DNA from: Alphaproteobacteria bacterium
Lineage (GTDB): Bacteria > Pseudomonadota > Alphaproteobacteria > Rickettsiales > SXRF01
NCBI GenBank assembly: GCA_033763575.1
Contig: JANRKF010000026.1
Location: 3,076 to 67,075, forward strand
DNA: 64,000 bases
Direction of reading: 5' to 3'
The notes under the pieces were generated by a model. That model was not told where the DNA came from and ran no database searches. It was given only the letters and a program-made list of their open reading frames with translations. The translations under genes and the position numbers were made by a program. This document shows positions 2,929 through 52,921 of the stretch, piece by piece. Positions within the stretch are counted from its first letter, which is position 1. Each line of letters opens with the position of its first letter.

Positions 2929-3874
2929 ACCCACCGCCGCCTCGCTCGCCACCCAGCAATTCCTGGAAATGATGGCGGCGGAACGTGGGGCGAGTGCCAA
3001 CACGCTGGCCGCTTACGGGCGCGATTTGCGCGATGCGGCGGCCGATTTCGCCGCCCGGAAAAAACAATTCCTGCGGGCGCGCAAAGGCGATATCGAGGCC
3101 TATCTCGCCACCCTTTCGGAAGCGGGCCTCTCGGCCCAGACGCAGGCGCGCAAGCTCTCGGCACTCCGGCAGTTCTTCGCCTTCGCCTATCAGGAAAAGA
3201 TGCGCGCCGACAACCCGGCGGCCACGCTTGAAACACCGAAATTATCGCGGCCGCTGCCCAAGGCATTGAGCCTTGAGGATATCAAAACATTGATCGCCCA
3301 GGCCCGCACCGACGATTCACCGAAGGGATTGCGGATGCAGGCGATGCTGGAGCTGATGTATGGCGCGGGACTCCGGGTGTCCGAGCTGGTGTCGCTGCCG
3401 CTTTCCGCCTTGCGGCTGGCCGCCGGAAGCAGCAACGTCACCGCCGAGTCGATGATTATTCGCGGCAAGGGCAGCAAGGAACGCCTCGTGCCGCTCAACC
3501 ACAACGCCCGCATGGCGCTCTCCAAATATCTCACCATCCGCCATGTTTTCTTACCGAGTACCGAGTACCGCGTACCGAGTACCAACAACTATCTCTTCCC
3601 CTACCACCGCGCCGACGGCACTATCACCCGCCAGCAATTCGGCGTGATGCTGAAGGAGCTGGCGCAAGGATGCGGCATCGATCCCAAGAAAATTTCGCCG
3701 CATGGGCTGCGCCATTCCTTCGCCTCGCACCTGCTGGAAGGCGGGGCCGACCTGCGGGTGATCCAGGAATTGCTGGGCCATGCCGATATCGCCACCACGC
3801 AGATATATACCCATATCGCGGGCGGCAGGCTGAAAAAGCTGGTGGAGGAAAAGCACCCGCTGGCCAAGGGCTGA
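2906..3874 (+). CDS. xerD: tyrosine recombinase XerD
   Basis: AERGASANTLAAY, GLRVSEL, RGKGSKER, HGLRHSFASHLL, LGHADIATTQIY. Confidence 0.93.
   Translation: MPKASTAKPTAASLATQQFLEMMAAERGASANTLAAYGRDLRDAAADFAARKKQFLRARKGDIEAYLATLSEAGLSAQTQARKLSALRQFFAFAYQEKMRADNPAATLETPKLSRPLPKALSLEDIKTLIAQARTDDSPKGLRMQAMLELMYGAGLRVSELVSLPLSALRLAAGSSNVTAESMIIRGKGSKERLVPLNHNARMALSKYLTIRHVFLPSTEYRVPSTNNYLFPYHRADGTITRQQFGVMLKELAQGCGIDPKKISPHGLRHSFASHLLEGGADLRVIQELLGHADIATTQIYTHIAGGRLKKLVEEKHPLAKG
3552..3583. repeat. (TACCGAG)n heptamer tract in frame in xerD
   Basis: taccgag taccgag taccgcg taccgag tacc encodes PSTEYRVPST. Confidence 0.9.
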
Positions 3875-3945
3875 AACGCCGCCATCGCCAAATTTCTTGT
3901 AGTTTCCGGATTCTCTGCTAGATTTGCGCGCCTGTAGGAGAGTTT

Positions 3946-4545
3946 ATGCGCATTGCGAAGATTGAACGAAAAACCAAGGAAACCTCTATCAATGTCGAGG
4001 TGAATCTGGACGGCACCGGGCTTTATGAAGTCGCCACCGGCATCGGCTTTCTTGACCACATGCTGGAGCAGCTTTCGCGCCACAGCCTGATGGATTTGAA
4101 GGTGAGCGCAGTGGGCGATTTGCATATCGACCAGCACCACACCACCGAGGATACCGGCATCGCCATCGGCGAGGCGGTGACAAAGGCGCTGGGTGATCGC
4201 AAGGGCATCACCCGCTATGCCAGCGCCTATGTGCCGATGGATGAAACACTCACCCGCGTTGCCATCGATATTTCCGGGCGGCCCTATTTCGTCTGGAAGG
4301 TCGATTTCTCCAAACCGAAACTAGGCGAGATGGATACCGAGCTGTTCCGCGAATGGTTCCAGGCCTTTGCCTTTGCCAGCGGCATGACGCTGCATGTGGA
4401 AAATCTCTACGGCGTCAATAACCACCACATCGTCGAATCCTGCTATAAGGGGCTGGCGCGGAGCTTGCGTGAAGCGGTCACCATCGACGCCCGCAAGGCC
4501 GATGCGATTCCATCGACGAAGGGAACGCTGGGCGGGGCGAAATAG
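3946..4545 (+). CDS. hisB: imidazoleglycerol-phosphate dehydratase
   Basis: [30 protein letters not shown]. Confidence 0.97.
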
Positions 4546-4546
4546 C

Positions 4547-4930
4547 ATGTTCCACGGGCTGAAACTCTACACCGTCCATACCAAACCGGGCAGCGACCAC
4601 TCGCTCACCAAGCCGGTGTTCCTGCGCGAAGGCTTCAACTGGCCGGCGTTTTTATTCACCTTCCTGTGGGCGCTCTATGAACGGCTGTGGCTGCTGGCGC
4701 TGGTCATCCTTGCCGCCAATTTCGCCATCGCCGCCGGCCTGCGCACCGGCCTGATCGACCAGATGTCGGGCACCATTATATTATTGGCGCTGCAGGTGAT
4801 CGTCGGTTTTTCCGGCAATGACGCGCTGCGCAAACGCATGCGGAAACAGGGCTATATCTTTCAGGATATCGCCAGCGGCGATTCGCTGCTCCGCGCCGAG
4901 CAGCGCTATTTCGACCGGCTGGTGGCATGA
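4547..4930 (+). CDS. DUF2628-like membrane protein
   Basis: FLREGFNWPAFLFTFLWALYERLW; hisB-X-hisH position; start at MFHGLK. Confidence 0.75.
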   Translation: MFHGLKLYTVHTKPGSDHSLTKPVFLREGFNWPAFLFTFLWALYERLWLLALVILAANFAIAAGLRTGLIDQMSGTIILLALQVIVGFSGNDALRKRMRKQGYIFQDIASGDSLLRAEQRYFDRLVA

Positions 4931-4941
4931 GGGAGGCAGGG

Positions 4942-5055
4942 GAAATGAAGAAATGGAGAATTGAAGAATTGAAGAGCAGAGTAATATATTCTCAGCCTGA
5001 CGTTGTTGTTTTTTCTTATTTCTCCAATTCCTCAATTCCTCAATTCCTCAATTCC
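4942..5055. repeat. inverted pair of octamer tandem repeats (GAATTGAA / TTCCTCAA)
   Basis: gaaatgaa gaaatgga gaattgaa gaattgaa, spacer, tctccaat tcctcaat tcctcaat tcctcaat. Confidence 0.88.
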
Positions 5056-5063
5056 ACTTTTTT

Positions 5064-5696
5064 ATGACCCTCGCCATCATCGATTACGGTTCCGGTAATT
5101 TGCGCTCGGTGGCGAAGGCGTTTGAGCATGTGGCGGGGGGTGAGAAAATCCTGGTCACTTCCGATGCGAAGGAGGTGGTGGCGGCCAGCCGCATCGTGCT
5201 GCCGGGCGTGGGCGCGTTTGGCGATTGCATGAAGGGACTCGCCGCGCTTTCCGGCATGGTCGAAACGCTGCATGAGCAAGTCATGCAAAAGAAAAAAAAC
5301 TTCCTCGGCATTTGCGTCGGCATGCAGCTGATGTTTGAGCGTGGGCTGGAGCACGGCACGCATGAAGGGTTGGGGTGGTTAAAGGGAGAAGTCGTCCACC
5401 TTAACCATCAACTATCAACCATCAACCATCAACTAAAAATCCCGCATATGGGCTGGAACGCGCTTGACCTGAAGCGCGACCACCCGATCCTGCGCGGCGT
5501 GGGTGGCGGCGCGCATGTCTATTTCGTCCATAGCTACCACGCGAAGGCGAACGCCGCCGATATCCTCGCCACCACCGGCTACGGCGGCGACGTGACCGCG
5601 ATGGTCGGGCGCGACAACATGGTCGGCACGCAATTCCACCCGGAAAAAAGCCAGGCATCAGGGCTTGCCATTTTGCAGAATTTCCTCAGTATGTAA
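5064..5696 (+). CDS. hisH: imidazole glycerol phosphate synthase glutaminase subunit
   Basis: [37 protein letters not shown]. Confidence 0.97.
5403..5434. repeat. (AACCATC)n heptamer tract in frame in hisH
   Basis: aaccatc aactatc aaccatc aaccatc aact encodes [11 protein letters not shown]. Confidence 0.9.
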
Positions 5697-5700
5697 TGCC

Positions 5701-6234: not shown

Positions 6235-6240
6235 ATTTAT

Positions 6241-6316
6241 CCCCGCATAAGCGTAGCGCATTGCGGGGTCCGGTATTGGTGCCGGACTCTGACCAGACCC
6301 CGCAACAAGTGCGGGG
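6241..6316. repeat. REP-doublet-like element copy 1
   Basis: CCCCGCA-taagcgtagcgcat-TGCGGGG tccgg ... ccaga CCCCGCAACAAGTGCGGGG. Confidence 0.88.
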
Positions 6317-7051: not shown

Positions 7052-7615
7052 TAGACCTTTTTGATTCAGGAATTTTCCTTCCTGTCCGGGCTTGGGCACC
7101 TGGCGGAACTGAAGCTGGCAGTCGGCCTGCGACAACCGCGCCGTGTCATTCTCGAACACCGCGCTGCCGGTGCATTCGGTGCTGGAGCTGTAGCGCATAT
7201 TGACCGACACACCGCCCATCATATTCGCGCCATCGGCCCATTCGGCGGAGGTGAAACGGACTGCGCCGGTGTCGCTGTCAAGGCTTTCGAGCGATGGCGT
7301 GGTGCTGTAATCGGTGAGGCTGTAGAGAATATTATCGACAAACGTAATAAACCCGGCCTTGTCGAAATTCTCATCCATGGCCGGGCGCGTATTGCCGATG
7401 GAAAAGAAATGGACCGTGAGATGGATTTTCGCATCATCGGTAAGAAGCGCGGTGAGCGCCTCGCTTACCCTGGCGCGGTCTTTAGTCGCCACCGCGTCGG
7501 AAAAATTTTGCAGCGATACCTGCACTGCGCGTTTTTTTTCACCGCTGACATAATAAAACCCCATCGCCACCAGCAGGATAACAAGCGCCACCAGCAGAGG
7601 AACAATCGCTTTCAT
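7028..7615 (-). CDS. hypothetical protein with N-terminal signal/TM anchor
   Basis: MKAIVPLLVALVILLVAMGFYYV; directly follows gcdH; convergent overlap with hisA. Confidence 0.65.
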   Translation of the reverse strand: MKAIVPLLVALVILLVAMGFYYVSGEKKRAVQVSLQNFSDAVATKDRARVSEALTALLTDDAKIHLTVHFFSIGNTRPAMDENFDKAGFITFVDNILYSLTDYSTTPSLESLDSDTGAVRFTSAEWADGANMMGGVSVNMRYSSSTECTGSAVFENDTARLSQADCQLQFRQVPKPGQEGKFLNQKGLLGLLGGG

Positions 7616-11778: not shown

Positions 11779-12539
11779 ATTAATTTCCTTGCTTTCTCTA
11801 AGCCTTCCGGCGTGTCCACCCCCAGCGGTACCGTATCGACCACCGCCACGTCAAGTCGCATTCCGGCTTCGAGCGCCCGGAGCTGTTCGAGTTTTTCCGC
11901 CTTCTCAAGCACGCTTGGCGGCAGCGAGACAAATGTTTCGAGCGCGGCGCGGCGATAGGCGTAAATGCCGATATGGTGATAATGCGGCCCTTCGCCATGC
12001 GGGATGAGGGAGCGGGAGAAATACAGGGCCTTGCCGGTTGCTGGTCTTTGGTCTTTGGTCTTTGGTTGCACCTGACTATTGACCAAAGACCCATGCCCCA
12101 TGACCACCTTCACCACCGCCGGATCGTTTCTTTCTTCATCGCTGGCAATCACTGCGGCAAGGGTGCCGATATCCACCAGCGGGTCATCGAGCAGCGCCGC
12201 CGCCGCACGGATAATATCCGGATCGAGCGTCGGCATATCGCCCTGTACATTAATGATAACATCGTATTTTTTTTCGGGATCGATTTGCAGGAGCGCCCGG
12301 TAGATACGGTCGGAACCGGAGGGAAGATCGGGGTCGGTCAGCACATATCTTCCACCGGCGGCCGCCACCGCATCGCCAATCTGCTGGCTGTCGCACGCCA
12401 CCGCCACATCACCGATCTTCGCGGCCAGCGCACGCTCCAGCACATGCACGATCATGGGCGCGCCGCCGATATCCGCAAGCGGTTTGTTCGGCAGGCGGGT
12501 GGAGGCAAGACGTGCCGGAATGAGAACCAGAGGATTCAT
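11742..12539 (-). CDS. kdsB: 3-deoxy-manno-octulosonate cytidylyltransferase
   Basis: [49 protein letters not shown]. Confidence 0.96.
12042..12105. repeat. inverted heptamer pair (TGGTCTT / GACCAAA-GACCCAT) in frame in kdsB
   Basis: tggtctt x3, spacer, gaccaaa gacccat gccccat gacc; peptide [20 protein letters not shown]. Confidence 0.87.
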
Positions 12540-14753: not shown

Positions 14754-16582
14754 TACCCGAAAGGACGATGACCGATAACCGAAAAGCAAGATTGCGTATT
14801 TTCTTTTCGATCATCGTAGCATCGGTCATCGGATCATCGGTCATCGGATCATCGGCGCAAGCTGCGCCGTCGCACTGCCTCTCGCTTTACGACCCCTGTA
14901 AATACCCCGCGAACTTTAGCCATTTCGATTATGTGAACCCGGACGCGCCCAAAGGCGGCAGCGTCAAGCTGGCCGATTCCGGCACGTTCGACAGCCTGAA
15001 CCCGTTTATATTGAAGGGCGTCAAGGCCCCGGCGGTTTCGATGATTTTCGATGCGCTGATGGTGTCCTCGCTCGATGAGCCGCAAAGCATGTATGGCCTG
15101 ATCGCCGAATCCGCCGACCTTAGCGCCGATAAAAGCCATATCGATTTTGTCTTGCGCAAAGAAGCGCGTTTTCATGACGGGACGCCGATTACCGCCGACG
15201 ACGTGGTGTTCTCCTTCGAAACGCTGATTACCAAGGGCGATCCCACCTACCGCATCATGCTGGCGCCGGTGAAAAGCGCCCAGAAAATCGACGCCCGCCA
15301 TGTGCGCTTCACGCTCGACAGGGAGGTGCGCGAGTCCGCCCTCATCGCGGCCTCCCTGCCGGTATTTTCCAAAGCCTATTACAGCAAAGTGGACTTTGAA
15401 AAAACCACGCTGGAGCCGCCGCTGGGAAGTGGCGCGTACAAAGTCCAGTCGGTCGATCCGGGGCGCGCCATCATCTATGAGCGGGTGAAAAACTACTGGG
15501 CGAAGAACCTGCCCTTCGCGCGCGGCCAATATAATTTCGATACCATACGCTATGATCTCTATCGCGATGAAAATGTCGCGCTCGAAGCGTTCAAATCCGG
15601 CCAGTATGATTTCCGCCGCGAATATGTCGCCCGCAACTGGGCCAAAGCCTACGACCACCCGGCGGTGAAAGATGGCCGCATCACCAAGCGCGACGTGCCG
15701 GATATGAGCCCGCAGGGGATGCAGGGTTTCGTTTATAACACCCGCAAACCCACCCTCTCCGACCGCCGGGTCCGCGAAGCGATCGGGCTGGCCATGGATT
15801 ATGAATGGCTGAATAAAACCATTTTCTACGGCGCCTATAAACGCAACCGCAGCTTCTTCGGCAATACCGATTTTGAGTCCAAGGGCAAGCCCTCCAAAGA
15901 AGAATTGGCGCTGTTGTCCCCCTATAAATCGAACCTGTCCCCTACCGTGTTCGAGCATGAATATGCCCCGCCTGTGACCGACGGTTCCGGCAACCCCCGC
16001 GAAAACCTGCTCAAGGCACAGGCGCTGCTCAATGAAGCGGGCTGGAAGGTAGAGGGTGGCAAGCGCATGAAAAACGGCCAGCCGCTCACCATCGAATTCA
16101 TGCTGCGCCAGCCGACCATGGAGCGCGTCATCGGCCCGATGCGGAAGAACCTGGAACGCCTGGGCATCACCAGCTCCATCCGCATGGTCGACGATTCGCA
16201 ATACCAGAAACGCATCGATGAAAAAGATTTCGACATCGTCTCGCTGTGGATCAATCGCGGGCTGTTTTACCCCGGCAATGAGCAGGTGGCATTGTGGCAT
16301 AGCTCACAGGCTGATGTGAAGGGCGGCAACAATCTGGCCGGCGCGAAAAACCCGGCGGTGGATGCCGCGCTCGCCGCGCTCATCGGCGCTAAAAACAAAG
16401 GCGAGCTGGTCGCCGCCGGACGGGCGCTCGACCGCATTTTGCTCTGGGAAAATTATGTGATACCGAACTGGCAGTCGGCATCATTCCGCATCGCCTACTG
16501 GAATAAATTCGGCATGCCGCCCACCCCGCCTAAATACGGCCTGGCCTTTGAAAGCTGGTGGATAAGGTCAGATGACAGGTGA
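14750..16582 (+). CDS. yejA: peptide ABC transporter substrate-binding protein (YejA-like)
   Basis: HFDYVNPDAPKGG, TFDSLNPFILKG, PLGSGAY, RALDRILL; start may be 14768. Confidence 0.9.
   Translation: MIPERTMTDNRKARLRIFFSIIVASVIGSSVIGSSAQAAPSHCLSLYDPCKYPANFSHFDYVNPDAPKGGSVKLADSGTFDSLNPFILKGVKAPAVSMIFDALMVSSLDEPQSMYGLIAESADLSADKSHIDFVLRKEARFHDGTPITADDVVFSFETLITKGDPTYRIMLAPVKSAQKIDARHVRFTLDREVRESALIAASLPVFSKAYYSKVDFEKTTLEPPLGSGAYKVQSVDPGRAIIYERVKNYWAKNLPFARGQYNFDTIRYDLYRDENVALEAFKSGQYDFRREYVARNWAKAYDHPAVKDGRITKRDVPDMSPQGMQGFVYNTRKPTLSDRRVREAIGLAMDYEWLNKTIFYGAYKRNRSFFGNTDFESKGKPSKEELALLSPYKSNLSPTVFEHEYAPPVTDGSGNPRENLLKAQALLNEAGWKVEGGKRMKNGQPLTIEFMLRQPTMERVIGPMRKNLERLGITSSIRMVDDSQYQKRIDEKDFDIVSLWINRGLFYPGNEQVALWHSSQADVKGGNNLAGAKNPAVDAALAALIGAKNKGELVAAGRALDRILLWENYVIPNWQSASFRIAYWNKFGMPPTPPKYGLAFESWWIRSDDR
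14809..14855. repeat. TCATCGG/GATCATCG tract in yejA signal peptide, with inverted arm near 14766-14781
   Basis: catcggtcatcggatcatcggtcatcggatcatcgg encodes SVIGSSVIGSS. Confidence 0.8.
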
Positions 16583-16644
16583 CAGGCGACGGGTGACAGG
16601 TATAATCATTTTCATCTGACACCCTGATCCTGACACCTGACACC
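16566..16644. repeat. imperfect inverted heptamer pair (TGACAGG / CCTGACA) at yejA-yejB junction
   Basis: tgacagg tgacagg cgacggg tgacagg ... ctgacac cctgatc ctgacac ctgacac. Confidence 0.85.
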
Positions 16645-17754
16645 ATGACTGCATACATAATCCGCCGCATATTATTTATGATACCCACCCTGTTCGGTAT
16701 CATGGTGCTGAATTTCCTCATTGTGCAGGCCGCCCCCGGTGGCCCGGTGGAACGGATGGTGGCACAGCTCACCGACATCACCAGCGCCCATGACGCGACG
16801 GCCCGCCTCTCCGGCAGCGGCTCGGATTCGGGTGCGGCGAGCCAGTCGCTGATGCGTTCCGGCGGTGATTCGCTCTATCGCGGCGGGCGCGGGCTGGATC
16901 CCGACCTCATCAGGGACATCGAGAAAATGTACGGCTTCGACAAGCCGCCGCTCGACCGCTTCCTGCAGATGATCGGCAACTATCTCCGCTTCGATTTCGG
17001 CGAGAGTTTTTACCGCAACGAGCGGGTCATCACGCTCATCATGAACACCCTGCCGGTCACCATCTCGCTCGGGCTGTGGACCACGCTTATCACCTATCTT
17101 GTCTCCATTCCGCTCGGCATCAGGAAAGCCGTGCGCGACGGCAGCGCCTTCGATATCGCAAGCAGCTGGATCATCATCATCGGCTATGCCATCCCGAGCT
17201 TCCTGTTCGCCATTTTACTGATTATCGTCTTTGCCGGCGGTGGCTATTTCCAATGGTTCCCGCTCAAGGGCCTCACCTCCGACAATTGGGCCGAACTCAG
17301 CCCGCTCGCCAAAATCGGCGATTATTTCTGGCATATCGCCCTGCCGGTCACCGCCATGGTCATCAGCGGCTTCGCGTCACTCACCATGCTCACCAAAAAC
17401 TGCTTCCTCGATGAAATCTCCAAGCAATATGTGCTGACCGCCCGCGCCAAGGGCTTAAGCGAGCGCGAGGTGCTCTATGGCCATGTGTTCCGCAACGCCA
17501 TGCTGATCGTGATCGCCGGGTTTCCGGGCGCATTGCTGTCCATCCTGTTTCGCAGCGCCCTTTTGATCGAGATTATTTTTTCGCTGAACGGGCTGGGATT
17601 GCTCGGCTACGAGGCGGTGGTCGGCCGCGATTACCCGGTGATGTTCGGCACGCTGTATATTTTCACGCTGCTCGGCCTCGTCTTCGGCCTGATCGGCGAC
17701 ATCGTCTATATGCTGGTCGACCCGCGCATCGATTTTGAAAAGAGGGCGATATGA
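16645..17754 (+). CDS. yejB: peptide ABC transporter permease
   Basis: [42 protein letters not shown]. Confidence 0.93.
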
Positions 17755-18770: not shown

Positions 18771-20413
18771 GCGCCCTCCTCTCCATTTCCCATTTCTCGC
18801 TGTCCTTTGGGGAGAGCCGCATCATCAGGGATATTTCGCTCGACATTTGGCCCGGCGAGATGGTGGCGATAGTCGGCGAATCCGGCTCCGGCAAGTCGCT
18901 TACCGCCCTCTCCTGCCTTGGATTGCAGCCAGCGGGTGCGCAGGTAAGTGGTGAAATTATGCTGGATGGCTACTCCCTCCCCATTAGGGGGAGGGTCGGG
19001 GTGGGGGCATCCACGGGTGATAGTGCAAATAATGCCCCCCTCCCAACCTCCCCCCTACAGGGGGAGGAGCTAAGGGCCCTCCGCGGGAAAACCGCCAGCA
19101 TGATTTTCCAGGAGCCGATGACGGCGCTGAATCCGCTGCACCCGATTGGCAAGCAGATCGGGGAGATGCTGAAGAAGAATAGCTCGATCACCCAATCATC
19201 CGATCATCGGATCATCATGCTTTTGGAAGAAGTCGGCCTCTCCCACCTCGCCTCCCGGCTTGGCGCCTATCCGCATGAGCTTTCCGGCGGCGAGCGCCAG
19301 CGGGTGATGATTGCCATGGCGATTGCCAATTCGCCGAAACTGCTGATTGCCGATGAACCTACCACCGCCGTCGACGTCACCATACAGGCGAAGATACTGA
19401 AATTACTGAAAGAACTACAAAAAACGCGCAATATGGCCATGATGTTCATCACCCATGACATCACGCTGGTGCGCAAGCTGGCCGACCGCGTGGTGGTGAT
19501 GAAATCCGGCGAGATCGTGGAACAAGGCAAGGTATCCGAGGTTTTCTCGCGCCCGCAGCATCCCTATACCCACGAACTGCTGGGTTCCGAGCCCAAAGGC
19601 ACCATGCCCCCCCTGCCCGCCAATGCGCCGGTTGCGCTTTCCTGCGAGGGGCTCAAAGTACATTTCCCGGTCAAAACCGGCCTGCTGCGCCGCACCACCG
19701 GATTTATCAAAGCCGTGGACGGCATATCCGTTACGATACCGGAATCCTCGACGCTGGGAATCGTAGGTGAATCCGGTTCCGGCAAGAGTACGCTCGGATT
19801 CGCCCTGCTGCGACTGGTAAAAAGCGAAGGCAAAATCGTCTGGCTGGGACGCGACATCGCCACGCTTTCCTCCGCCGCCATGCGCCCACTGCGAAAGGAA
19901 ATGCAACTGGTATTCCAGGACCCCTACTCCAGCCTGAACCCGCGCATGACGGTCGGCGACATTATCGGCGAAGGATTGCGTGTCCACCGAGTACCGAGTA
20001 CCGAGTACAGAGTACGTATCGCACGCGCGATAGAAGAAGTCGGGCTCTCGCCTGATATGGCCGAACGCTACCCCCATGAATTTTCCGGCGGTCAGCGCCA
20101 GCGCATCGCCATCGCCCGCGCCATGATATTAAAGCCACAATTCGTGGTGCTCGACGAGCCGACCTCGGCGCTCGATTTGACCGTGCAGACGCAAATCATC
20201 GCGCTGCTTAAGGATTTCCAGATTAAATACGGCATCAGCTACCTGTTCATCAGCCATGATTTGCGCGTGGTGAGGGCCATTGCGCACCATATCGCCGTGC
20301 TGTATAAGGGCGAGATGGTAGAATATGGAAAAGCGAGCGATATCCTGACGCATCCGGCGCAGGACTATACCAGACGGCTGATCGAAGCGGCAATGTTCAA
20401 AGGGGAAGCATAA
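18767..20413 (+). CDS. yejF: peptide ABC transporter dual ATPase
   Basis: Two GESGSGKS Walker A and SGGERQR/SGGQRQR motifs; ATGA overlap with yejE. Confidence 0.93.
   Translation: MSALLSISHFSLSFGESRIIRDISLDIWPGEMVAIVGESGSGKSLTALSCLGLQPAGAQVSGEIMLDGYSLPIRGRVGVGASTGDSANNAPLPTSPLQGEELRALRGKTASMIFQEPMTALNPLHPIGKQIGEMLKKNSSITQSSDHRIIMLLEEVGLSHLASRLGAYPHELSGGERQRVMIAMAIANSPKLLIADEPTTAVDVTIQAKILKLLKELQKTRNMAMMFITHDITLVRKLADRVVVMKSGEIVEQGKVSEVFSRPQHPYTHELLGSEPKGTMPPLPANAPVALSCEGLKVHFPVKTGLLRRTTGFIKAVDGISVTIPESSTLGIVGESGSGKSTLGFALLRLVKSEGKIVWLGRDIATLSSAAMRPLRKEMQLVFQDPYSSLNPRMTVGDIIGEGLRVHRVPSTEYRVRIARAIEEVGLSPDMAERYPHEFSGGQRQRIAIARAMILKPQFVVLDEPTSALDLTVQTQIIALLKDFQIKYGISYLFISHDLRVVRAIAHHIAVLYKGEMVEYGKASDILTHPAQDYTRRLIEAAMFKGEA
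18973..19069. repeat. GC-rich palindromic element in frame in yejF
   Basis: CTCCCTCCCC.ttaGGGGGAGGGtcGGGGTGGGGG...CCCCCCTCCCaaCCTCCCCCtacaGGGGGAGGAG encodes SLPIRGRVGVG...PLPTSPLQGEE. Confidence 0.85.
19185..19216. repeat. (CGATCATC)n octamer tract in yejF
   Basis: cgatcacc caatcatc cgatcatc ggatcatc encodes SITQSSDHRII. Confidence 0.75.
19986..20015. repeat. (ACCGAGT)n heptamer tract in yejF
   Basis: accgagt x3, acagagt; encodes HRVPSTEYRVR; same unit as in xerD. Confidence 0.9.
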
Positions 20414-20955: not shown

Positions 20956-22254
20956 ATGGCCAGCGATACTATCTTCGCCCTTGCCACGCCGCCCGGGAAA
21001 TCCGGCGTCGCTGTGCTGCGGATTTCGGGGAAGGGGGCGTTACCGACACTGCAACAACTCACTGGCAAGCGTGAGTGGACGCCAAATAAACTTACTTACT
21101 CACCACTCACAACTCAGCACTCAGCACTCATCGACCATGGCATGGCGGTCTATTTTAAAGCCCCAAAAAGCTTCACCGGGGAAGAGGTGGTGGAATTGCA
21201 TATCCATGGCAGCCTTGCCGTCATTCGTGAGCTGCTGGGGATATTGGAAAGCCTTCCCGGCCTGCGTCCCGCCGAGCGGGGAGAATTCACCCGCCGGGCG
21301 CTCTTAAACGGCAAAATGGATTTACTGGAAGTGGAGGGGCTGGCCGACCTGATCGACGCCGAAACCAGCGAGCAGAAATCACAGGCGCTGCGGCAGCTCC
21401 AGGGGGAGTTGAGCGGTTTTTATGAGCGGCTGCGCAAGGAAATCATCGCGACGCTCGCCCATCTGGAAGCTTACATCGATTTTCCCGATGAGGAGATTCC
21501 GGAATCGGTGCTTCTGGGCATGGATAAAGAGGTGAGGGCGGTGATGCAGACCATCGCGGCCACGCTTGAAAAACATGCCGACGGCGAGCGCATCCGCAAC
21601 GGGATTTCGATAGTGATACTGGGCGCGCCGAACTCCGGTAAATCGAGCCTTATCAATGCATTATCAAAGCGCGAGGCGGCGATTGTCTCGCACCACGCAG
21701 GCACCACGCGTGACCTCATCGAAGTCCATATGGAAATTGCCGGCTATCCGGTGATTCTGGTGGATACGGCGGGCATCCGCGAAAGCGACAACGACATCGA
21801 AGCCGAGGGCATCCGCCGCGCCATCGCCCGCGCCGAACATGCCGATATCCGGCTGGTATTGTTCGATGGCACCCAGGCACCCGATGCCGCCAGCCTCAGG
21901 CTGCTGGGCGAGGGTGCAATCGCCGTTTCAACCAAATCCGACCTTAAAAAAGGCGGGCAGGGGCTCGCCATCTCCACACAGACGGGGGAGGGCATCTCCG
22001 AACTCCTCACCCTGCTCGAAACACGCATTGTGGAAAGTTTCTCAGGCGAGGGGGCGCTGATCACCCGCAGCCGCCATCGCGGGCTGTTGCAGCAGGCCAG
22101 CCGCCATCTGGAGGCGTTTTTTGAACCGGCCGAACTGGAGCTGAAATGCGAGGAACTGCGGCTTGCCGCCGGCTCCATCGCGAAAATCACTGGAAAAATA
22201 GCGGTGGATGATGTATTAGACGTTGTTTTCCGGGAATTTTGTATTGGGAAATGA
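20956..22254 (+). CDS. mnmE: tRNA modification GTPase
   Basis: DTIFALAT, SFTGEEVVE, GAPNSGKSS, GTTRD, DTAG, FCIGK. Confidence 0.97.
   Translation: MASDTIFALATPPGKSGVAVLRISGKGALPTLQQLTGKREWTPNKLTYSPLTTQHSALIDHGMAVYFKAPKSFTGEEVVELHIHGSLAVIRELLGILESLPGLRPAERGEFTRRALLNGKMDLLEVEGLADLIDAETSEQKSQALRQLQGELSGFYERLRKEIIATLAHLEAYIDFPDEEIPESVLLGMDKEVRAVMQTIAATLEKHADGERIRNGISIVILGAPNSGKSSLINALSKREAAIVSHHAGTTRDLIEVHMEIAGYPVILVDTAGIRESDNDIEAEGIRRAIARAEHADIRLVLFDGTQAPDAASLRLLGEGAIAVSTKSDLKKGGQGLAISTQTGEGISELLTLLETRIVESFSGEGALITRSRHRGLLQQASRHLEAFFEPAELELKCEELRLAAGSIAKITGKIAVDDVLDVVFREFCIGK
21091..21130. repeat. (ACTCACC/ACTCAGC)n heptamer tract in mnmE
   Basis: actcacc actcaca actcagc actcagc actca encodes YSPLTTQHSAL. 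Confidence 0.85.
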
Positions 22255-22258
22255 TTAT

Positions 22259-22345
22259 CCCCGCATTTATTGCGGGGTCTGGCGACATAAGGTTTCAGGC
22301 GTATGAATAGCAAAGAAAAATACCGGACCCCGCCATGCGGCGGGG
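22259..22345. repeat. REP-doublet-like element copy 4, straddling mnmG start
   Basis: CCCCGCATTTATTGCGGGG tctgg ... ATG ... accgga CCCCGCCATGCGGCGGGG. Confidence 0.88.
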
Positions 22346-24231
22346 CTTATGATGTCATCGTCATCGGTGGTGGACATGCCGGCTGCGAAGCGGCAGCGGC
22401 GGCGGCACGCGTGGGCGCCAAAACCGCGCTCATCACCCAGAAATTCGCAACCATCGGCGAAATGTCGTGCAACCCGGCCATCGGCGGCATCGCCAAGGGC
22501 ACACTGGTGCGCGAGATCGATGCGCTGGACGGCATGATGGGCCGGGTCATCGACCGCGCTGGCATTCATTACCGCGTGCTGAACGCCAGCAAAGGCCCCG
22601 CCGTCCATGGCCCACGCGCACAGGCCGACCGCAAGCTCTATAGGCTTGCCATGCAGGACGTTTTGTCTAATTACGAAAACCTCACCATCACCGAAGGGTC
22701 GGTTGAGGATTTATTACATTCCCGCGAAGGCGGGAATCCTATAGAAATAACAGGTGTTGTCCTCGCCAACGGCGAAGTAATTTCCGCCCCCAAAGTCGTC
22801 CTCACCACCGGCACTTTTCTGAATGGCTTGATCCATTGCGGCGAGAAAAAAATACCGGCGGGTAGGGTAGGGGACGCGCCCTCGATCGGCCTATCTAATA
22901 CATTGAAAAGATTGGGCTTTAATGTTGGACGGCTCAAAACCGGCACCCCGCCGCGCCTGGATGGGAAAACCATCGATTGGGCATCGCTCGAAGCCCAGCC
23001 CGGCGATAATCCCCCCAAGCCTTTTTCCTATCTCACTGAGCGTGTAGAGGTGCCGCAAATCCATTGTTCGATCACCCATACGAGTGCGGCAACTCATGAG
23101 ATTATCCGCGCCAATCTTCACCGCGCACCGATGTATAGCGGGCAAATTGAAAGCCGGGGGCCGCGCTACTGCCCGTCGATCGAAGATAAAGTCGTGCGTT
23201 TTGCCGAGAAGCTTCGCCACCAGATTTTTCTCGAACCGGAGGGGCTGGATGACGATACGGTCTACCCGAACGGCATCTCGACCTCACTTCCGGAAGACGT
23301 CCAGCTTGAGCTTTTGAAAACCATCGGTGGTTTGGAAAAAGCGGTCATGATCCGTCCGGGCTATGCCATCGAATATGATTTTGTCGACCCGCGTGAATTG
23401 AAGCCAACCTTAGAGACCAAAAAGGTGAGGGGGCTTTATCTCGCCGGCCAGATCAACGGCACCACCGGCTATGAAGAAGCTGGCGGGCAGGGGTTGGTGG
23501 CCGGGGCAAATGCCGCCCTTTCGGCGTCCGGCTCCAGCCCTCTTATCATCGACCGGGCCGATGGTTATATCGGGGTGATGATCGATGATCTGATCACCCA
23601 TGGCACCACCGAACCCTACCGTATGTTCACCTCGCGCTCGGAATTTCGCCTGTCCTTACGGGCGGATAATGCCGACCTGAGACTGACCCCTATCGGCCTG
23701 AAAGCGGGGGTTATCGGGACGGAAAGGACAGGGCATTTCAATAAAAAATCCGAAGCGCTTTCTGTTTCACGTGAATCGCTCCGACAACTTTCGGCCACCC
23801 CAAACGAATTCCAGAAACACCAGATTGCCATCAATCAGGATGGAATTCGCCGGAATGCGTTTGACCTCATCCGCCATGACCATATCGGATTTGAAGGGGC
23901 GACAAAAATCTGGCCGGAGCTGAAAAATATTCCGGATGATATCCGTGAGCAACTTATCATTGAAGCCACCTATTCATCTTATCTCGATCGCCAGAAAGAA
24001 GACCGGGATAATTTGAAAAACGAAGAGGGCATGGCGATTCCGGAAACACTGAACTTTGATGACCTCCCCTCTCTTTCCAATGAGGTGAAGGCCAAACTTC
24101 GTTACCATAAACCGTCGACCATTGGTGGGGCGCTCTCCATACAGGGGATTACCCCGGCGGCGGCGATCACATTGATGGCCCATATTCGCAAATTGAATAA
24201 TGAAAAAAAGCGTGGTAAGAAGGTGGCATGA
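22303..24231 (+). CDS. mnmG: tRNA uridine-5-carboxymethylaminomethyl synthesis enzyme
   Basis: [53 protein letters not shown]. Confidence 0.98.
22717..22739. repeat. ATTCCC-N8-GGGAAT palindrome in frame in mnmG
   Basis: cATTCCCgcgaaggcGGGAATcc encodes HSREGGNP. Confidence 0.75.
23763..23778. promoter_or_regulatory. parS site (imperfect) in mnmG
   Basis: TGTTTCACGTGAATCG vs consensus TGTTTCACGTGAAACA. Confidence 0.75.
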
Positions 24232-24815
24232 TCCACCTGTCGCCCGACCTCAAAACACGATTCGAAATCTATCAGGCCCTTCTTTTGAAATGGCAGAAAT
24301 CGGTAAATCTAGTCTCCGATTCGACCATTGCGGATTCATGGAATCGTCACTTTATCGACTCCGCCCAACTGGCAAAATATATCACCAGACAAAAACCGGT
24401 GGTCGTTGATATTGGAAGCGGCGGCGGATTCCCCGGAATGATATTGGCGATGATGATAGATGGAGAGTTTCACCTGATAGAAAAAGACAAAAAGAAGTGC
24501 GTTTTTCTCTCCGAAGTTTCACGTGAAACCAAAACAAAAGTGATAATTCATGATGATAGAATCGAAACATCATCTATTCACAATGTCGGCTATATCACCT
24601 CAAGGGCCTGTGCCAATGTTTCACAACTATTCGACTGGACGGAAAAATTAGTTTCACATGAAACAAAATGTCTCTTCCTAAAGGGCGAAAACTATTCTAT
24701 AGAGATTGACGAAGCAAAAAAAGATTGGCAATTTGAAATCCAACTACATCCGAGTCTCACTAAATCTGAATCCGCTATTCTCGAACTTTATCATATAAGC
24801 AGGAGAAGGAAATGA
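24228..24815 (+). CDS. rsmG: 16S rRNA m7G527 methyltransferase
   Basis: [26 protein letters not shown]; mnmG-rsmG-parAB synteny. Confidence 0.95.
24515..24530. promoter_or_regulatory. parS site in rsmG
   Basis: aGTTTCACGTGAAACc, perfect 14-bp core. Confidence 0.9.
24650..24665. promoter_or_regulatory. parS site in rsmG
   Basis: aGTTTCACATGAAACa, one core mismatch. Confidence 0.82.
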
Positions 24816-25633: not shown

Positions 25634-25643
25634 GAAGCAACAT

Positions 25644-26567: not shown

Positions 26568-27026
26568 TTCCTTTTTATTCAGTTCGGAATTACCGCTTCC
26601 GTGCGCGTCCTGAAGGTTTGCCTATCGAAAGGCGCGATTAATGCCCCATACCCCACGGTACACGGCCTATGAACCCTACTCCTGATTTTACCACCCGACG
26701 AAAATTCCGCCGCCGATAACCCCATAGCCAAGCCATTAATGCTGCTTCTGTTATGTTATTTTTTGATGCATCTCCCTTTGTTGATTCGTCATTGCGAGCG
26801 ACTTATAGTTAACTAACCGAATGTTTGCACATTCGGACGCTGCCTACGGCGCGGCAAATCTGGCTTCCGGCCTCGATTTTCATACCAGTTTTGCTGCACT
26901 TTGTTTGCGAACTGGTATAAGAATCTCATGCTAAAAACTGTCAGGGAAGGGGGTAAATTGCACTTTTTTCAATAAAAATGACAAGCGGCTGTATTTTATG
27001 GTTTTCGTGAAAATTTTTGTATCGCC

Positions 27027-43369: not shown

Positions 43370-43693
43370 TTATTCCTTCATTTTACGGCGGGCCTTTTCA
43401 TCAAGTCCCGAGGTTCCTTCGCGCTTTGAAAGCTCTTCCATCACGTCTGCCATGCTCACGCCCGCATCGGCAAGCAGCAGCAGCCAGTGGAAAATCATAT
43501 CGGCGCTCTCACTCACGATTTCTTTTTTATCGCGCTTCATCGCCGCGATGATCGTTTCCACCGCTTCCTCGCCGAATTTCTGGGCGATTTTTTCCGTGCC
43601 CTGTTTCAGCCGCTTGGCGATGTAAGAGCTGTCGGGGTCGGCGCTTTTACGCTGTTCTATAATCGCTTCGAGTTTGGTTAATATGTCGCTCAT
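43370..43693 (-). CDS. hisE: phosphoribosyl-ATP pyrophosphatase
   Basis: [22 protein letters not shown]. Confidence 0.95.
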
Positions 43694-44553
43694 GAATGCA
43701 GTCTTACTGGAATGCCTTCCCTTTGCATAGCCTCTTTTGCCTGGGCAACGCTAAACGTGCCGAAATGGAAAACAGACGCGGCGAGCACCGCATCCGCCTT
43801 GCCTTCGATCACCGCATCGACAAAGTGCGATAGCTCGCCGATGCCGCCGGAGGCAATGACGGGAATGGAAACCGCTTCCGAAACGGCGCGGGTCAGCTCC
43901 ACATCCACGCCGATCTTGGTGCCGTCGCGATCCATCGAGGTGAGGAGTATTTCCCCGGCGCCATACGCCGCCATTTTTTTCGCCCACTCCACCGCATCGA
44001 TACCGGTGGCGTTTCTGCCGCCATGGGTGAATATTTCAAACCTTTGGTCGCTCCCGGTACGCGCCTGCTGCGCGTCCCATGAAGCGCGCTCAAGGCTGGC
44101 TCGCGCTGCTGCGCTCCCATCACTCGCAACTTGCAACAGGGAACTTGGAACTCTCTTCGCATCCATGGCGACCACGATGCATTGATTGCCGAATTTCTCC
44201 GCCGCCTCACGCACGAATTCCGGGCGCTTCACCGCCTCGGTATTGATGGAAACTTTGTCGGCCCCGGCAAGCAGCAGCTTGCGTATATCGTCCAGCGTGC
44301 GCACGCCACCGCCCACGGTAAGCGGCATAAAACACGCCTCCGCCACCTTCGAAATCATATCATATAAAATGCCGCGATTATCCGAGCTCGCGGTAATATC
44401 GAGGAAGCATAATTCATCCGCCCCGCCGGCATCATAGAGTTTTGCCTGCTCAACCGGGTCACCCGCATCAACCAGCTCGACAAAGTTGATGCCTTTGACC
44501 ACGCGGCCATCTTTGACATCCAGACAGGGAATGATACGGGTTTTCAGGGTCAT
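43690..44553 (-). CDS. hisF: imidazole glycerol phosphate synthase cyclase subunit
   Basis: [36 protein letters not shown]; extra segment of about 30 aa. Confidence 0.96.
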
Positions 44554-49608: not shown

Positions 49609-49691
49609 GCCACCGGCATAACGGAAAAAGCGCCGGCTGTCACTATGAGCGTGAATGGAAAAATGAAGCCGTCATGGACGGTGATTTACCC

Positions 49692-50459: not shown

Positions 50460-50465
50460 GGGCGA

Positions 50466-50993: not shown

Positions 50994-51763
50994 TTGGAAA
51001 AGAACACGGCGGTGAGGAAATAGTTGGAAAGAAGGATGAGGATCGAGGCGGAGACCACGGCATGGGTGGTGGCGGCACCCACGCCTTGCGCACCGCCTTT
51101 GGAATGGAAACCGTGATAGCAGCCCATGAGCGAGATGATGAAACCGAACGCCGAGGCCTTCACCAATCCGGAGACGACGTCCTTGGTTTCTAAAAATTCC
51201 ACGGTGCTTTTCAAATACGGCCCGGGCGCAAATCCCAGCTCCTGGATGGAGACGAGATAGCCGCCGAACACGCCGATAACGTCGCCGACGGCAACCAGCA
51301 CCGGCAGCATGGCAAGCCCGGCGAGCAGGCGCGGCAGCACCAGATATTTATGCGGGTCGGTGGATAAGGTGGTGAGCGCATCGATCTGTTCGGTCACGCG
51401 CATGGTGCCGATCTCGGCCGCGTAGGCAGCACCGATGCGGCCAGCGACCATCAACCCGGCCATGACCGGGCCCAGCTCGCGGGTGATGGCGAGCACCACC
51501 ACGATGGCAATCGAGCTTTCGGCATTAAAGCGCGAAAAGCCGGAATAGGTTTGGAGCGCCAGCGCCGCGCCGGTGAACATCGCCGTCATGCCGACCACCG
51601 GTAGCGAATAATAGCCCAGCTCGATCAGCTGTTTACGCAGTTGCTTGATGTAAAAAGGCGGGCGGAAAAGACCGCTCATCGCCGCCCAGACAAAAAGGGT
51701 GAGCCGCCCCGTCGCCTCAAGGAATCCAATAAAAAAACGACCAGTCAGGGCAAGGAAGTTCAT
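50990..51763 (-). CDS. mlaE: MlaE-like ABC permease
   Basis: RELGPV, AEIGTMRVTEQIDAL, GAQGVGAATT. Confidence 0.93.
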   Translation of the reverse strand: MNFLALTGRFFIGFLEATGRLTLFVWAAMSGLFRPPFYIKQLRKQLIELGYYSLPVVGMTAMFTGAALALQTYSGFSRFNAESSIAIVVVLAITRELGPVMAGLMVAGRIGAAYAAEIGTMRVTEQIDALTTLSTDPHKYLVLPRLLAGLAMLPVLVAVGDVIGVFGGYLVSIQELGFAPGPYLKSTVEFLETKDVVSGLVKASAFGFIISLMGCYHGFHSKGGAQGVGAATTHAVVSASILILLSNYFLTAVFFSK

Positions 51764-51774
51764 GATATAATCAC

Positions 51775-51865
51775 GGGCTATGAGTCATGTGTCATGCGTT
51801 TCTAACAAATCATGCGAAACTGCGCAACCAACAACTCATGACCCGCAACCCATGACTCATGACTC
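51775..51865. repeat. inverted heptamer pair (GTCATGA / CATGACT) at alr-mlaE junction
   Basis: gggctat gagtcat gtgtcat gcgtt ... actcatg acccgca acccatg actcatg actc. Confidence 0.8.
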
Positions 51866-52921
51866 GGTATAAATCCGCCTCACCCGCCGACCAATGCGCG
51901 TGAAAACTTCATAGCCGATGGTGCCGCACTGTTCGGCGATGTCGTCGACCGTTTGCCCGACATTGATGAATTCGGCGCGGCTATTTTCAGTAATGGCGGA
52001 GGCTGGAACCTGCGAGACATCGAGCGCGATCATATCCATCGAGATGCGGCCAACGATCGGCACTTTATGCCCGGCGATAAACGCAACGCCGCGATTGCTT
52101 AAGCTTCGGAAATAGCCGTCGGAATAGCCAAGCCCGACGATGGCGATGCGCGCATTTTTCCCGGCCTCGAAGGTGGCGCCGTATCCCACCGATTCATCGC
52201 GGTCGAGCTCGCGAATCTGCAGGATGGGGGCGGATAAGGTGGCGACATGCCGCATCGGGTTTTCGCCGGCGACGGGGTTGATTCCGTAAAGCGCGCAGCC
52301 CGGCCTTCCGAGGTCGAAATGATACTCATCCGGCAGGAAAAGACCCGATGAATTGGCGAAAGAAACCGGCGCATTGGGGAAATATTTTTGTGCTTCTTTC
52401 AGCCGCAAAAGCTGCTCGGCATTTTTGGGATGCGCCGGGTCATTGGCGCAGGAGAGGTGGGAGAGGAGAAGCAGGGGTTGGGGATTAGGGATTGGGGATT
52501 GGGAAAGAAATTTTCCGATGTCGGTTTCGCTCAATCCAAGGCGCGTCATGCCTGTATCTACGTGAACAAAATATTTTCTGACACCTGCCACCTGACACCT
52601 GTCGCCTTGTTCCAGATCATTTGCCACCGGAATAATATTATGCGCCTTGAATTCGGTTTCTTCCCCCTTAAAAATGCCGTTGAACACGGCGATGTCGGCT
52701 TTAGGGAGCGTGCCGCGCAGCTCCATCGCCTCATCGAGCGTGGCGACGAAAAATAATGTGCAGCCTTCGGCGGCCAGCGCCTTGCTTACTTCAGCAACGC
52801 CGAGGCCGTAGGCATTCGCCTTCACCACGGAAGCGATGCTTTTTTTAGCGTGGCGGTTTTTGAGGAGCTGGTAGTTGGCGCGAAGTGCGGACAAATTTAC
52901 CGAGAGGGTGGCGCTAGCCAT
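51857..52921 (-). CDS. alr: alanine racemase
   Basis: VVKANAYG, VDTGMTRLG, RPGCALYG, GRISMD, GTIGYE. Confidence 0.96.
   Translation of the reverse strand: MASATLSVNLSALRANYQLLKNRHAKKSIASVVKANAYGLGVAEVSKALAAEGCTLFFVATLDEAMELRGTLPKADIAVFNGIFKGEETEFKAHNIIPVANDLEQGDRCQVAGVRKYFVHVDTGMTRLGLSETDIGKFLSQSPIPNPQPLLLLSHLSCANDPAHPKNAEQLLRLKEAQKYFPNAPVSFANSSGLFLPDEYHFDLGRPGCALYGINPVAGENPMRHVATLSAPILQIRELDRDESVGYGATFEAGKNARIAIVGLGYSDGYFRSLSNRGVAFIAGHKVPIVGRISMDMIALDVSQVPASAITENSRAEFINVGQTVDDIAEQCGTIGYEVFTRIGRRVRRIYTES
52474..52504. repeat. (GGGGATT)n heptamer tract in alr
   Basis: encodes SQSPIPNPQP. Confidence 0.87.
52578..52606. repeat. (CTGACAC)n heptamer tract in alr
   Basis: ctgacac ctgccac ctgacac ctgtcgc encodes GDRCQVAGVR. 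Confidence 0.83.

Follow-up and report, generated by a model that had tools for sequence, protein, structure and literature searches.

The stretch of DNA analysed here, called the window throughout (G000:C26:3076-67075, 64 kb), belongs to an uncultured freshwater alphaproteobacterium, genome G000, and carries numerous tandem tracts of 7- and 8-nt units, many of them lying in frame within conserved proteins. The genome is a 1.94-Mb metagenome assembly of 35 contigs, with about 56% GC and 92% completeness. According to NCBIfam profiles, the window holds xerD, hisB, hisH, hisA, kdsB, a gene for a yejA-like binding protein, yejB, yejF, mnmE, mnmG, rsmG, a gene for a ParA-like ATPase, parB, holA, leuS, yggS, priA, hisF, sucC/sucD, mdh, mlaE, a gene for an MlaF-like ATPase, alr, ilvN, dnaJ, and dnaK. 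Tracts were located with Tandem Repeats Finder (TRF) at a period of 7 or 8 and at least 3 copies, and the merging of overlaps resulted in 182 tracts for the whole genome. The window contains 26 of these, about four times the genome-average density, and 17 of the 26 lie inside ten conserved proteins, all of which are matched essentially end to end by NCBIfam profiles and retain open reading frames. An earlier reading of the sequence (the original prediction) had named tracts in these genes and described the host frames as open, with catalytic motifs intact; TRF confirmed the named tracts in their places, the ten frames are indeed open, and the statement on motifs held for PriA, in which the Walker A residues, the DEEH motif, and eight zinc cysteines form conserved columns in a 59-sequence alignment. 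The two sites given for PriA were correct, but the count was too low, as the group at 41002-41084 brings the number of TRF tracts in this protein to three. Our analysis revealed that the tracts are dispersed copies of limited unit families that recur elsewhere in the order, both in other genera and in other families, and that they comprise two structural classes, foldback elements and solitary arrays.

Abundance and unit families of the tracts

The genome contained 144 period-7 and 44 period-8 tracts, compared with 5 and 4 in one third-order Markov simulation. In the 1605 called coding sequences (CDS), 94 period-7 and 15 period-8 arrays were found, compared with 1 to 7 and 0 to 5, respectively, in five codon shuffles. 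The tract excess is real and well above chance. Two findings had been named in advance as speaking against the original prediction, namely orthologs of equal length without repeats and a tract density no higher than in codon-shuffled sequence; the former was encountered at many sites, as described below, whereas the shuffles clearly showed the opposite of the latter. Tract counts were over-dispersed among contigs (chi-square p = 3e-9) and among 20-kb bins.

The dispersed head-to-tail 7-nt arrays fall into several unit families, as in heptanucleotide short tandemly repeated repetitive sequences (STRR) and long simple sequence repeats (SSR). Among 188 TRF rows, the commonest units were AAAGACC (22), ACAGGTG/ACACCTG (20), and ACCGAGT (9), followed by AACAACC (7), AAACCTAG (7), AACCATC (7), and AATTCCTC (6). 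Heptamer array length peaked at 30-33 nt (70 of 141 arrays), corresponding to about 4.5 units, and reached 36 nt or more in only 6; the sharp drop above 36 nt was evident both inside and outside genes. All nine ACCGAGT arrays are solitary, 30-33 nt long, genic, and on the coding strand, and their phase is similarly constrained, with an identical start base in five and starts no more than 2 nt apart in eight. Of 129 distinct heptamer units found in loci of other genomes (4.16 Mb), 21 were also used in G000, compared with 6.4 expected; some of these loci overlap, which affects tract counts and leaves the distinct-unit count unchanged. The peptides that the original prediction had seen shared between unrelated proteins are accounted for by shared units: PSTEYRV in XerD and YejF derives from ACCGAGT, SPLTT and SLTTHHSPLITT in MnmE and PriA from ACTCACC and its complement, and FLNSSIP in YggS and PriA from the octamer AATTCCTC. 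TRF tract lengths modulo 3 (40/24/41 in genes versus 35/26/16 outside) carry no information here, as the edges reported by TRF do not mark those of the inserts.

Foldback elements and solitary arrays

To look for inverted partners, the reverse complement of each tract was aligned to the 100 nt on either flank; 105 of the 182 tracts proved to have one, with a score that exceeded the 99th percentile set by 546 random genomic controls. The paired share was larger outside genes and at their edges (59 of 77 tracts) than within them (46 of 105). The AAAGACC family gives an example: in its 22 tracts, displayed with 60-nt flanks, GGTCTTT-like units stood upstream in most, as judged by eye and uncounted. 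DNA hairpin folding of six paired window elements gave z values of -1.2, -2.1, -3.35, -3.5, -3.8, and -4.2, and two solitary tracts gave -0.9 and -0.2, so the solitary class is not palindromic. Foldbacks are elements of about 60-125 nt composed of a tandem-array arm, a variable loop, and a reverse-complement array arm, and the solitary class consists of arrays of about 30-33 nt, or roughly 4.5 units. The octamer composite element, aligned at three window sites, reads (GAAATGAA/GAATTGAA)n, an A-rich loop, and (ATTCCTCA)n, with the second arm being a near reverse complement of the first, and it occurs at about nine places in G000. The foldback architecture was absent from the original prediction, and in the literature searched, we found no earlier description of tandem-armed foldbacks, of such a heavy load in essential genes, or of heptamer tracts lying in frame within this clade's housekeeping genes.

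A probable selection filter on genic copies

Three copies of a 7- or 8-nt unit pass through all three frames, and a unit that contains a stop triplet when read cyclically is therefore lethal if it lies on the coding strand. Units with stops on both strands made up 17 of 47 intergenic tracts, 8 of 30 gene-edge tracts, and 4 of 105 CDS tracts. The stop-free unit AAAGACC occurs in both genic and non-genic positions, whereas AAAGACT, which differs by a single mutation and contains a stop, is confined to positions outside genes or at their edges; likewise, genic octamer elements stand only in the TGA-free orientation. The orientation bias extends beyond stops (ACCGAGT, 9 of 9; AACAACC, 5 of 5), which may be attributable to the more hydrophilic peptides encoded by that strand. 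Tract density is about fourfold higher outside genes, with 77 of 182 tracts in the approximately 14% of DNA outside called genes and the other 105 being genic. These observations support a selection filter on genic copies.

Different units in different genera occupy the same loops in YggS, LeuS, MnmE, and both loops of YejF, and the zinc loop of PriA is occupied in 6 of 14 relatives. In an AlphaFold model of PriA built with the 59-sequence alignment (mean pLDDT, 88.5; pTM, 0.88), the insert at residues ~391-418 (pLDDT 48-55) is predicted to lie at the tip of a beta-hairpin between cysteine pairs, with the flanking strands intact. Genic survivors thus appear to sit in surface loops that vary within proteins conserved in their other parts. 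Stop-unit exclusion, the repeated use of loops, and the PriA model agree with the earlier view that only frame-preserving copies in tolerant loops survive.

Distribution among relatives

Judged by PriA, the public genomes closest to G000 are metagenome-derived and belong to uncultured "Rickettsiales" or Alphaproteobacteria (about 60% identity); a PriA scan of metagenomes reached a best identity of 63%, and G000 sequence was present in one drinking-water metagenome run (X1, DNA) and in no RNA run. Our comparison set comprised two congeners (G001, G002) along with representatives of 16 further genera in the family (L-numbers denote individual loci). Tract density per 100 kb, estimated for 13 relatives from samples of 49-400 kb, was highest in G001 (21), G013 (20), G003 (15), and G017 (15), compared with about 9.4 in G000 (whole genome), 4 in each of G014, G015, and G018, 2 in G009, 1.2 in G002, 1 in G011, and 0 in G006, G007, and G030, the last from another family. 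Loci of more distant Alphaproteobacteria contained essentially no tracts. The dominant units differ between dense genomes, alongside some that are shared. Gain and loss of the load are therefore rapid, even within a genus. Of 151 genomes of the order, 5, from three families, contained the octamer 21-mer (at most one mismatch), and none contained its reversed control. The recurrence of units genome-wide, the excess of units shared with other genomes, and the spread of this 21-mer bear out the original argument that local slippage alone is insufficient. The accompanying claim of an active process that deposits repeats fares less well as to "active," which is suggested only by a sister species with approximately eightfold fewer tracts; neither polymorphism nor an enzyme was found.

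Several loci bear on how tracts may travel. At G000:C24:37507-37538, an ACCGAGT cassette lies in a 388-aa protein that is 96% identical to its G002 ortholog (L177), and 82 of 84 surrounding bases match G002, compared with 70-85% DNA identity for typical G000/G002 genes. This comparison suggests that a recent exchange between the G000 and G002 species carried the tract along. The exact 21-mer of the AATTCCTC array was also detected in five phage-like viral contigs (L273, L274/L276, L275, L277), two of which are identical over 170 nt; one contig has about 12 units and one has an inverted partner. The ACCGAGT 25-mer was in no viral contig. Phage could possibly serve as a vehicle for the horizontal spread of octamer arrays, which we mention as a lead only. 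In G116, from another family, octamer arms flank a nested, unrelated palindrome, GTCATCCTGAACTTGTTTCAGGATCC plus its complement, in the loop (L118:1390-1560, L123), and this palindrome constitutes a separate dispersed hairpin family in that genome.

Features of the window

Table 1. Tandem tracts and foldback elements of the window, in window coordinates
Position	Strand	Site	Tract or element	Fold, length, or other detail
3552-3583	+	XerD	solitary (TACCGAG)x4.6, encodes LPSTEYRVPST	no hairpin partner; fold z -0.9
4942-5055	+	upstream of hisH, intergenic	octamer foldback, arms (GAAATGAA)n 4942-4975 and (CAATTCCT)n 5025-5055	
5403-5433	+	HisH	solitary (AACCATC)x4.4	
12036-12101	-	KdsB	foldback, arms GGTCATG/GGGCATG/GGTCTTT and (AAAGACC)x3.6; TRF tract 12042-12066, TGGTCTT	z -3.5
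14807-14855	+	YejA-like binding protein, signal-peptide region	period 8/15 tract	net +2 aa vs G002
16569-16649	+	yejA stop/yejB start	foldback (CAGGTGA)n / (CTGACAC)n	z -3.35
19185-19216	+	YejF loop 1	octamer (CGATCATC)x4	equal length to G002
19986-20015	+	YejF loop 2	solitary (ACCGAGT)x4.3, encodes HRVPSTEYRVR	near-perfect
21098-21130	+	MnmE	degenerate (ACTCACC)x4.7	equal length in 20 orthologs
30172-30198	-	LeuS, aa 276-284	unit GAGTTCC (plus strand)	equal length in G002, G001, L013, L001
30291-30320	-	LeuS, aa 235-245	unit CTTGCAA (plus strand)	net +4 aa vs G002; 11-aa heptad insert at same site in G001
33367-33482	+	YggS	octamer foldback, arms (GAATTGAA)x9.4 and (ATTCCTCA)x3.6, A-rich loop; encodes ELKK...	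z -3.8
34218-34242		intergenic	(AAACCTAG)x3.1, unit with stops on both strands	family intergenic in 6/7 copies
40364-40398	-	PriA, near C-terminus	unit GGTGAGT (complement of ACTCACC), encodes SLTTHHSPLITT	model pLDDT ~78
41002-41084	-	PriA zinc-ribbon loop	octamer foldback, net ~+25 aa	z -2.1
42691-42718		intergenic	(GGTCATG)x4, inverted partner downstream	partner score 14
43984-44148	-	HisF, aa 136-190 (HisF 43690-44553)	32-aa insert, mostly non-repetitive, two GTTGCAA-like units	weak member
52473-52504	-	Alr	units AGGGATT/GGGGATT, encodes SQSPIPNPQPL	+9 aa vs G002; +4 to +5 vs G001, G003
52578-52601	-	Alr, aa 107-115	unit CTGACAC	length about equal to orthologs
58156-58188		ilvN stop codon (acetolactate synthase small subunit)	(TTTGGTC)x4.7, AAAGACC family	
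60248-60302		dnaK-dnaJ spacer	foldback (ATGGTTG)n / (ACCATCA)n	z -4.2

The features listed in Table 1 differ in how they compare with relatives. XerD is as long as its G002 ortholog, and both are 6 aa longer than the G001 protein and that of a more distant relative. The foldback upstream of hisH reaches a z value of only -1.2 because its loop is long. In HisH, the 30-nt tract stands opposite 18 nt in G002, a net gain of 4 aa, and the KdsB foldback, a net gain of 19 aa, is missing from both G001 and G002. Loop 1 of YejF holds a AATTCCTC element in G013; loop 2 equals the G002 length, is 2 aa shorter than in other genera, and in G001 this site is taken by another heptad insert, 14 aa long. The latter genome also has longer in-frame heptad arrays in loops that hold the window's short tracts, namely PRTTNHDLRTTNYELRTTNYDLR in YejF (L106/L083) and VETNIETNNEITNKITNE in LeuS (L185). 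The degenerate ACTCACC tract of MnmE is shared by G002, and in L098 a CCGTCAT tract occupies this loop. The YggS element is found at the same site, with nearly identical arms, in L027 and L002/L120; G001 lacks it (+28 aa relative to that genome), and where the three genomes have the octamer element, G002 shows an insert about as long but without repeats. In PriA, the C-terminal tract adds a net 1 aa relative to G002, which has a similar sequence there, and the zinc-loop foldback is missing from G002, G001, and 8 of 14 aligned relatives, with L027 PriA carrying the same octamer element at another site. The HisF insert predicted earlier as a tract is present and missing from G001 and G002, but its repeat character is weak, as the two GTTGCAA-like units fall below the TRF threshold; the insert may be a decayed element. 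In the dnaK-dnaJ spacer, the first arm was called as part of DnaJ, yet the DnaJ profile begins at residue 16.

Three further observations concern the surroundings. The mnmE-mnmG-rsmG-(ParA-like)-parB-holA cluster at 20956-28034, of a kind usual near alphaproteobacterial origins, sits in the middle of this tract-dense 64 kb. At 7565-7609, a repeat of 21-nt period (2.1 copies) encodes the hydrophobic AIVPLLVALVILLVA at the N-terminus of a 195-aa protein without an NCBIfam match. Outside the window, at G000:C26:131346-132632, the XseA profile matches in two parts within one open 462-aa frame, which suggests that this repair gene carries another insert.

Origin of the tracts

The explanation that we prefer, with about even confidence, is that G000 has been colonised by families of non-autonomous mini-repeats of 7- and 8-nt units, resembling both Rickettsia palindromic elements (RPE) and STRR, which were copied from existing arrays, then filtered by selection, and are now decaying in place. 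Spread would proceed by the copying of existing arrays rather than by independent slippage at each site; selection would remove copies that bring a stop codon, break the frame, or disturb the fold, leaving genic survivors in one orientation and in variable surface loops; and fixed arrays would decay by point substitution without a change in length, and some orthologs would therefore be of equal length and non-repetitive. The constant cassette size and phase, the conserved loops, and the sharing across families favour array copying, while singleton units and visible seeds leave room for a local origin of part of the tracts.

Several results weigh against this explanation, most of them concerning length. 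In a blind sample, 105 CDS-tract host proteins were compared with 400 kb of G002, of which 20 matched and 16 spanned the tract; the 11 spanned solitary tracts differed from G002 by a net 0, 0, 0, 0, 1, 2, 2, 2, 3, 6, and 15 aa. At equal-length solitary tracts, the flanks align in frame, nearly every base inside the patch differs from G002, and the left edge of the patch often shares 4-6 bases with the unit. Simple insertion would fail to explain such tracts, and decay from a shared tract is unsupported at young ones because the G002 segments opposite them retain little residual identity. Age may explain some equal lengths, as in MnmE (degenerate in both genomes), YggS, and XerD; insertion with later decay fails to account for YejF loop 2. 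No target-site duplication was seen at the KdsB and PriA junctions. The 188 TRF rows reduce to 83 canonical units, many of them singletons, which fits a local origin for part of the tracts. Same-family copies were no closer than label shuffling predicts (18 pairs within 50 kb versus 14.8, with 488 of 2000 shuffles reaching 18), leaving local hopping of families unsupported. The repetitive extragenic palindrome (REP)-associated tyrosine transposase (RAYT; Y1, PF01797), rve, DDE_Tnp_1, and TnpB had no match in G000, a draft of 92% completeness in which insertion sequence copies may be unassembled, and RAYT was also missing from the tract-rich G001, G003, G013, and G017, being present only in G012, G019, G021, and G026. 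For these comparisons, G002 was sampled over 400 kb and every other relative over 49-100 kb, and the 1605 genes came from our own crude caller.

The split in length follows class: foldbacks are net insertions (four further paired elements gave net +4, +6, +19, and +16/+18 aa relative to G002), and solitary tracts mostly keep the ortholog length. The in-frame insertion originally proposed consequently stands for foldbacks and fails for many solitary tracts, which match the non-repetitive length of the ortholog.

Other candidate drivers were likewise examined. A reverse transcriptase (RT) was rejected as the driver, as none of 30 relatives yielded it, tract-rich genomes included. The sole RT found in G000 (G000:C19:5446-6492; L101:1252-2301, minus strand; 349 aa) scored 89 bits as group-II-like against a cut-off of 300, is UG17/UG4-like in PADLOC, and falls in no curated class; it adjoins a 304-aa open reading frame without a family on a low-GC contig without tracts. 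Among repair genes, MutS, XseA, and RecJ are present in G000, none of 31 genomes of the order yielded SbcD, and RecQ was found in 9 of 31, with G000, G001, G002, G003, G013, and G017 among those in which it was not found. SbcD, the hairpin nuclease, thus seems to be missing from the entire group. A lost repair gene was nevertheless rejected as the cause, given the three genes present and the failure of SbcD or RecQ absence to separate dense from empty genomes.

An unlikely alternative to array copying is a peculiarity of replication or repair that favours slippage and fold-back template switching in a 7-8-nt register, such that arrays and inverted partners arise in place from chance seeds and recurrent units reflect composition and the stop filter. 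It matches the heptanucleotide long SSRs of Burkholderia, Xanthomonas, and cyanobacteria, and in SSR-rich genomes no class of long SSR is commoner than heptanucleotide arrays, for which a 7-nt polymerase contact has been proposed (Mrazek 2007, as cited in PMC4679880). Seeds are visible opposite tracts (ACCGAG in G002 YejF, CCGA in G002 XerD, ACCAAA in C2:18057), and the many singleton units, the equal-length solitary tracts, the lack of any transposase of the searched families, and a hairpin-permissive background, with SbcD in none of the 31 genomes and RecQ missing in six, all point the same way. On the other hand, such an origin does not predict the same 21-mer in three families with a reversed control of 0, the fixed size and phase of ACCGAGT arrays, or an octamer A-rich loop conserved across sites and species. 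Free slippage predicts a broad spread of lengths rather than the 30-33 nt peak with a drop above 36 nt even outside genes, and one step of +7 or +8 in a gene is a frameshift; the repair genes present and the lack of correlation between SbcD or RecQ and density also argue against it. The equal lengths could alternatively reflect a cassette of about 32 nt copied by ectopic template switching or short-patch conversion, seeded on microhomology and overwriting about an equal length, an explanation that we regard as quite unlikely but retain as a live competitor. Most of the 11 solitary tracts are within 2 aa of the G002 length even though each spans 10-11 aa; YejF, the second LeuS tract (30172-30198), and the first Alr tract (52578-52601) match the ortholog length; and the in-frame flanks, the almost wholly different patch bases, the 4-6 bases shared at the left edge, and the constant cassette size and phase would all be expected. 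Equal length is also expected, though, from the decay of old tracts in a tract-poor sister (MnmE, YggS, XerD) or from selection that holds the length of the loop; net insertions also occur among solitary tracts (+6, +15, and +4 in HisH), the samples are small, and we know of no mechanism with a length ruler.

It is very unlikely, in our estimation, that selection keeps the hairpins for a signalling role in RNA or DNA (for instance in termination, mRNA stabilisation, protein binding, or translational regulation), with genic copies as by-products or useful linkers. The high rate of pairing outside or at the edge of genes (59 of 77), the location of several elements at gene boundaries (yejA/yejB, the ilvN stop, dnaK-dnaJ, and upstream of hisH), and the conservation of units across genera with approximately 60% identical proteins would suit such a function, and regulatory roles have been proposed in the reports on TAACTGA (PMC4679880) and GGGNATC (PMC4692102) heptamers. 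Against it stand the lack of a marked preference among intergenic types (head/tail), the many unit sequences, and the near or complete absence of tracts from the sister species and several genera; moreover, no Rfam family coincided with any tract, only a tRNA being matched in the window. An artefact of metagenome assembly or binning, finally, is so improbable as to be negligible. The 35-contig assembly and the uneven tract density among contigs (p = 3e-9) could raise this concern, but every genic tract keeps its frame open, the same elements occur in independently assembled genomes, and tract-poor and tract-rich contigs are similarly distant from G002 (70-85% identity); contigs of run X1 also bridge the MnmE and KdsB tracts without gaps, although X1 is possibly the source sample and hence not independent, and cover by contigs of X1 and a second run, X2, was low and fragmented. 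We further see a small but real chance that an undescribed family-specific process, switched on and off between sister lineages, writes heptamer cassettes of about 32 nt over genes without a change in length and builds tandem-armed foldbacks, with the size of about 4.5 units set by its machinery and not by G-quadruplex formation. If true, a machinery-set cassette size would recast the four-unit preference of the Xanthomonas and Nostoc heptamers.

Comparison with known repeat systems

Congeners ranging from 1 to 21 tracts per 100 kb offer a natural experiment for the factor that makes or removes repeats, and the tracts map loops of PriA, LeuS, MnmE, YejF, KdsB, YggS, and Alr that tolerate 10-40 foreign residues. 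They also call for caution in annotation, as the inserts are real and not frameshift artefacts. Phase-variable contingency loci, in which altered unit numbers switch surface or virulence genes in and out of frame, were rejected as an equivalent, since the tracts of G000 occupy the middle of genes for housekeeping enzymes and leave every frame open. The tracts share with REPs, their bacterial interspersed mosaic elements (BIME), and miniature inverted-repeat transposable elements (MITE) the features of being short, hairpin-forming, dispersed, and non-autonomous. They differ from REPs in that G000 and four tract-rich relatives are without Y1 and 46 paired tracts are genic instead of all being extragenic, from REPs and MITEs in having many unit sequences rather than one conserved palindrome, and from MITEs in the lack of target-site duplication at KdsB and PriA and of rve, DDE_Tnp_1, or TnpB matches in G000.

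Closer parallels are found among heptanucleotide repeats. TAACTGA repeats of marine Beggiatoaceae, cyanobacteria, and Bacteroidetes are described in PMC4679880 as occurring in 2-6 copies, mainly directly upstream of start codons, with one inverted set among 170. In common with the G000 tracts, this heptamer family is found in distant lineages without an evident transfer mechanism, and the stop content of the unit dictates location; as described there, it is a single favoured unit and does not lie in loops of housekeeping proteins. The GGGNATC heptamers of Xanthomonas and Nostoc prefer about four units and show under-representation within coding regions, which was explained by G-quadruplex formation (PMC4692102, which also cites the Calothrix STRR as heptanucleotide repeats). 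Relative to these accounts of STRR and long SSR, the G000 tracts are alike in forming dispersed heptamer families with a preference for about four units, a higher density outside genes, and a patchy phylogeny. The original prediction had additionally recognised the cyanobacterial STRR-type unit CCCCART in alr; the resemblance applies to that one unit (GGGGATT / CCCCAAT) and does not extend to demonstrated homology with cyanobacterial STRR. In contrast to the repeats in those reports, 105 of the 182 G000 tracts lie in called genes, essential ones included, more than half are paired, and octamers occur as well. Most G000 units are not G-rich yet show the same preference for 4-5 units, which suggests that the four-unit preference has a cause more general than the G-quadruplex.

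RPE are unique-sequence palindromes of about 150 bp in ten families (Ogata et al. 2000, as summarised in PMC10969869). On that description, the G000 system is similar in being composed of dispersed palindromic mini-elements that are in frame and stop-free in unrelated housekeeping genes, compatible with the fold, and without a known transposase, in an alphaproteobacterial host. Hairpin formation is evident from the 105 paired tracts and from five of six elements with z values of -2.1 to -4.2, and in-frame, stop-free insertion in conserved genes is evident from KdsB, PriA, and YggS within the ten hosts. The summarised RPE descriptions set the G000 elements apart in that the arms of the latter are tandem 7-8-nt arrays, the elements measure 60-125 nt, and a solitary class exists alongside. 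The host also differs, being a member of an environmental clade with genomes of about 2 Mb and 44-57% GC rather than Rickettsia. The phenomenon of selfish DNA in essential proteins, known from RPE, is thus extended to an environmental clade and to a different architecture, and two separate literatures, on heptanucleotide STRR-type repeats and on in-frame palindromic elements, are joined. By analogy, the system would in effect work like RPE combined with heptanucleotide STRR-type repeats.

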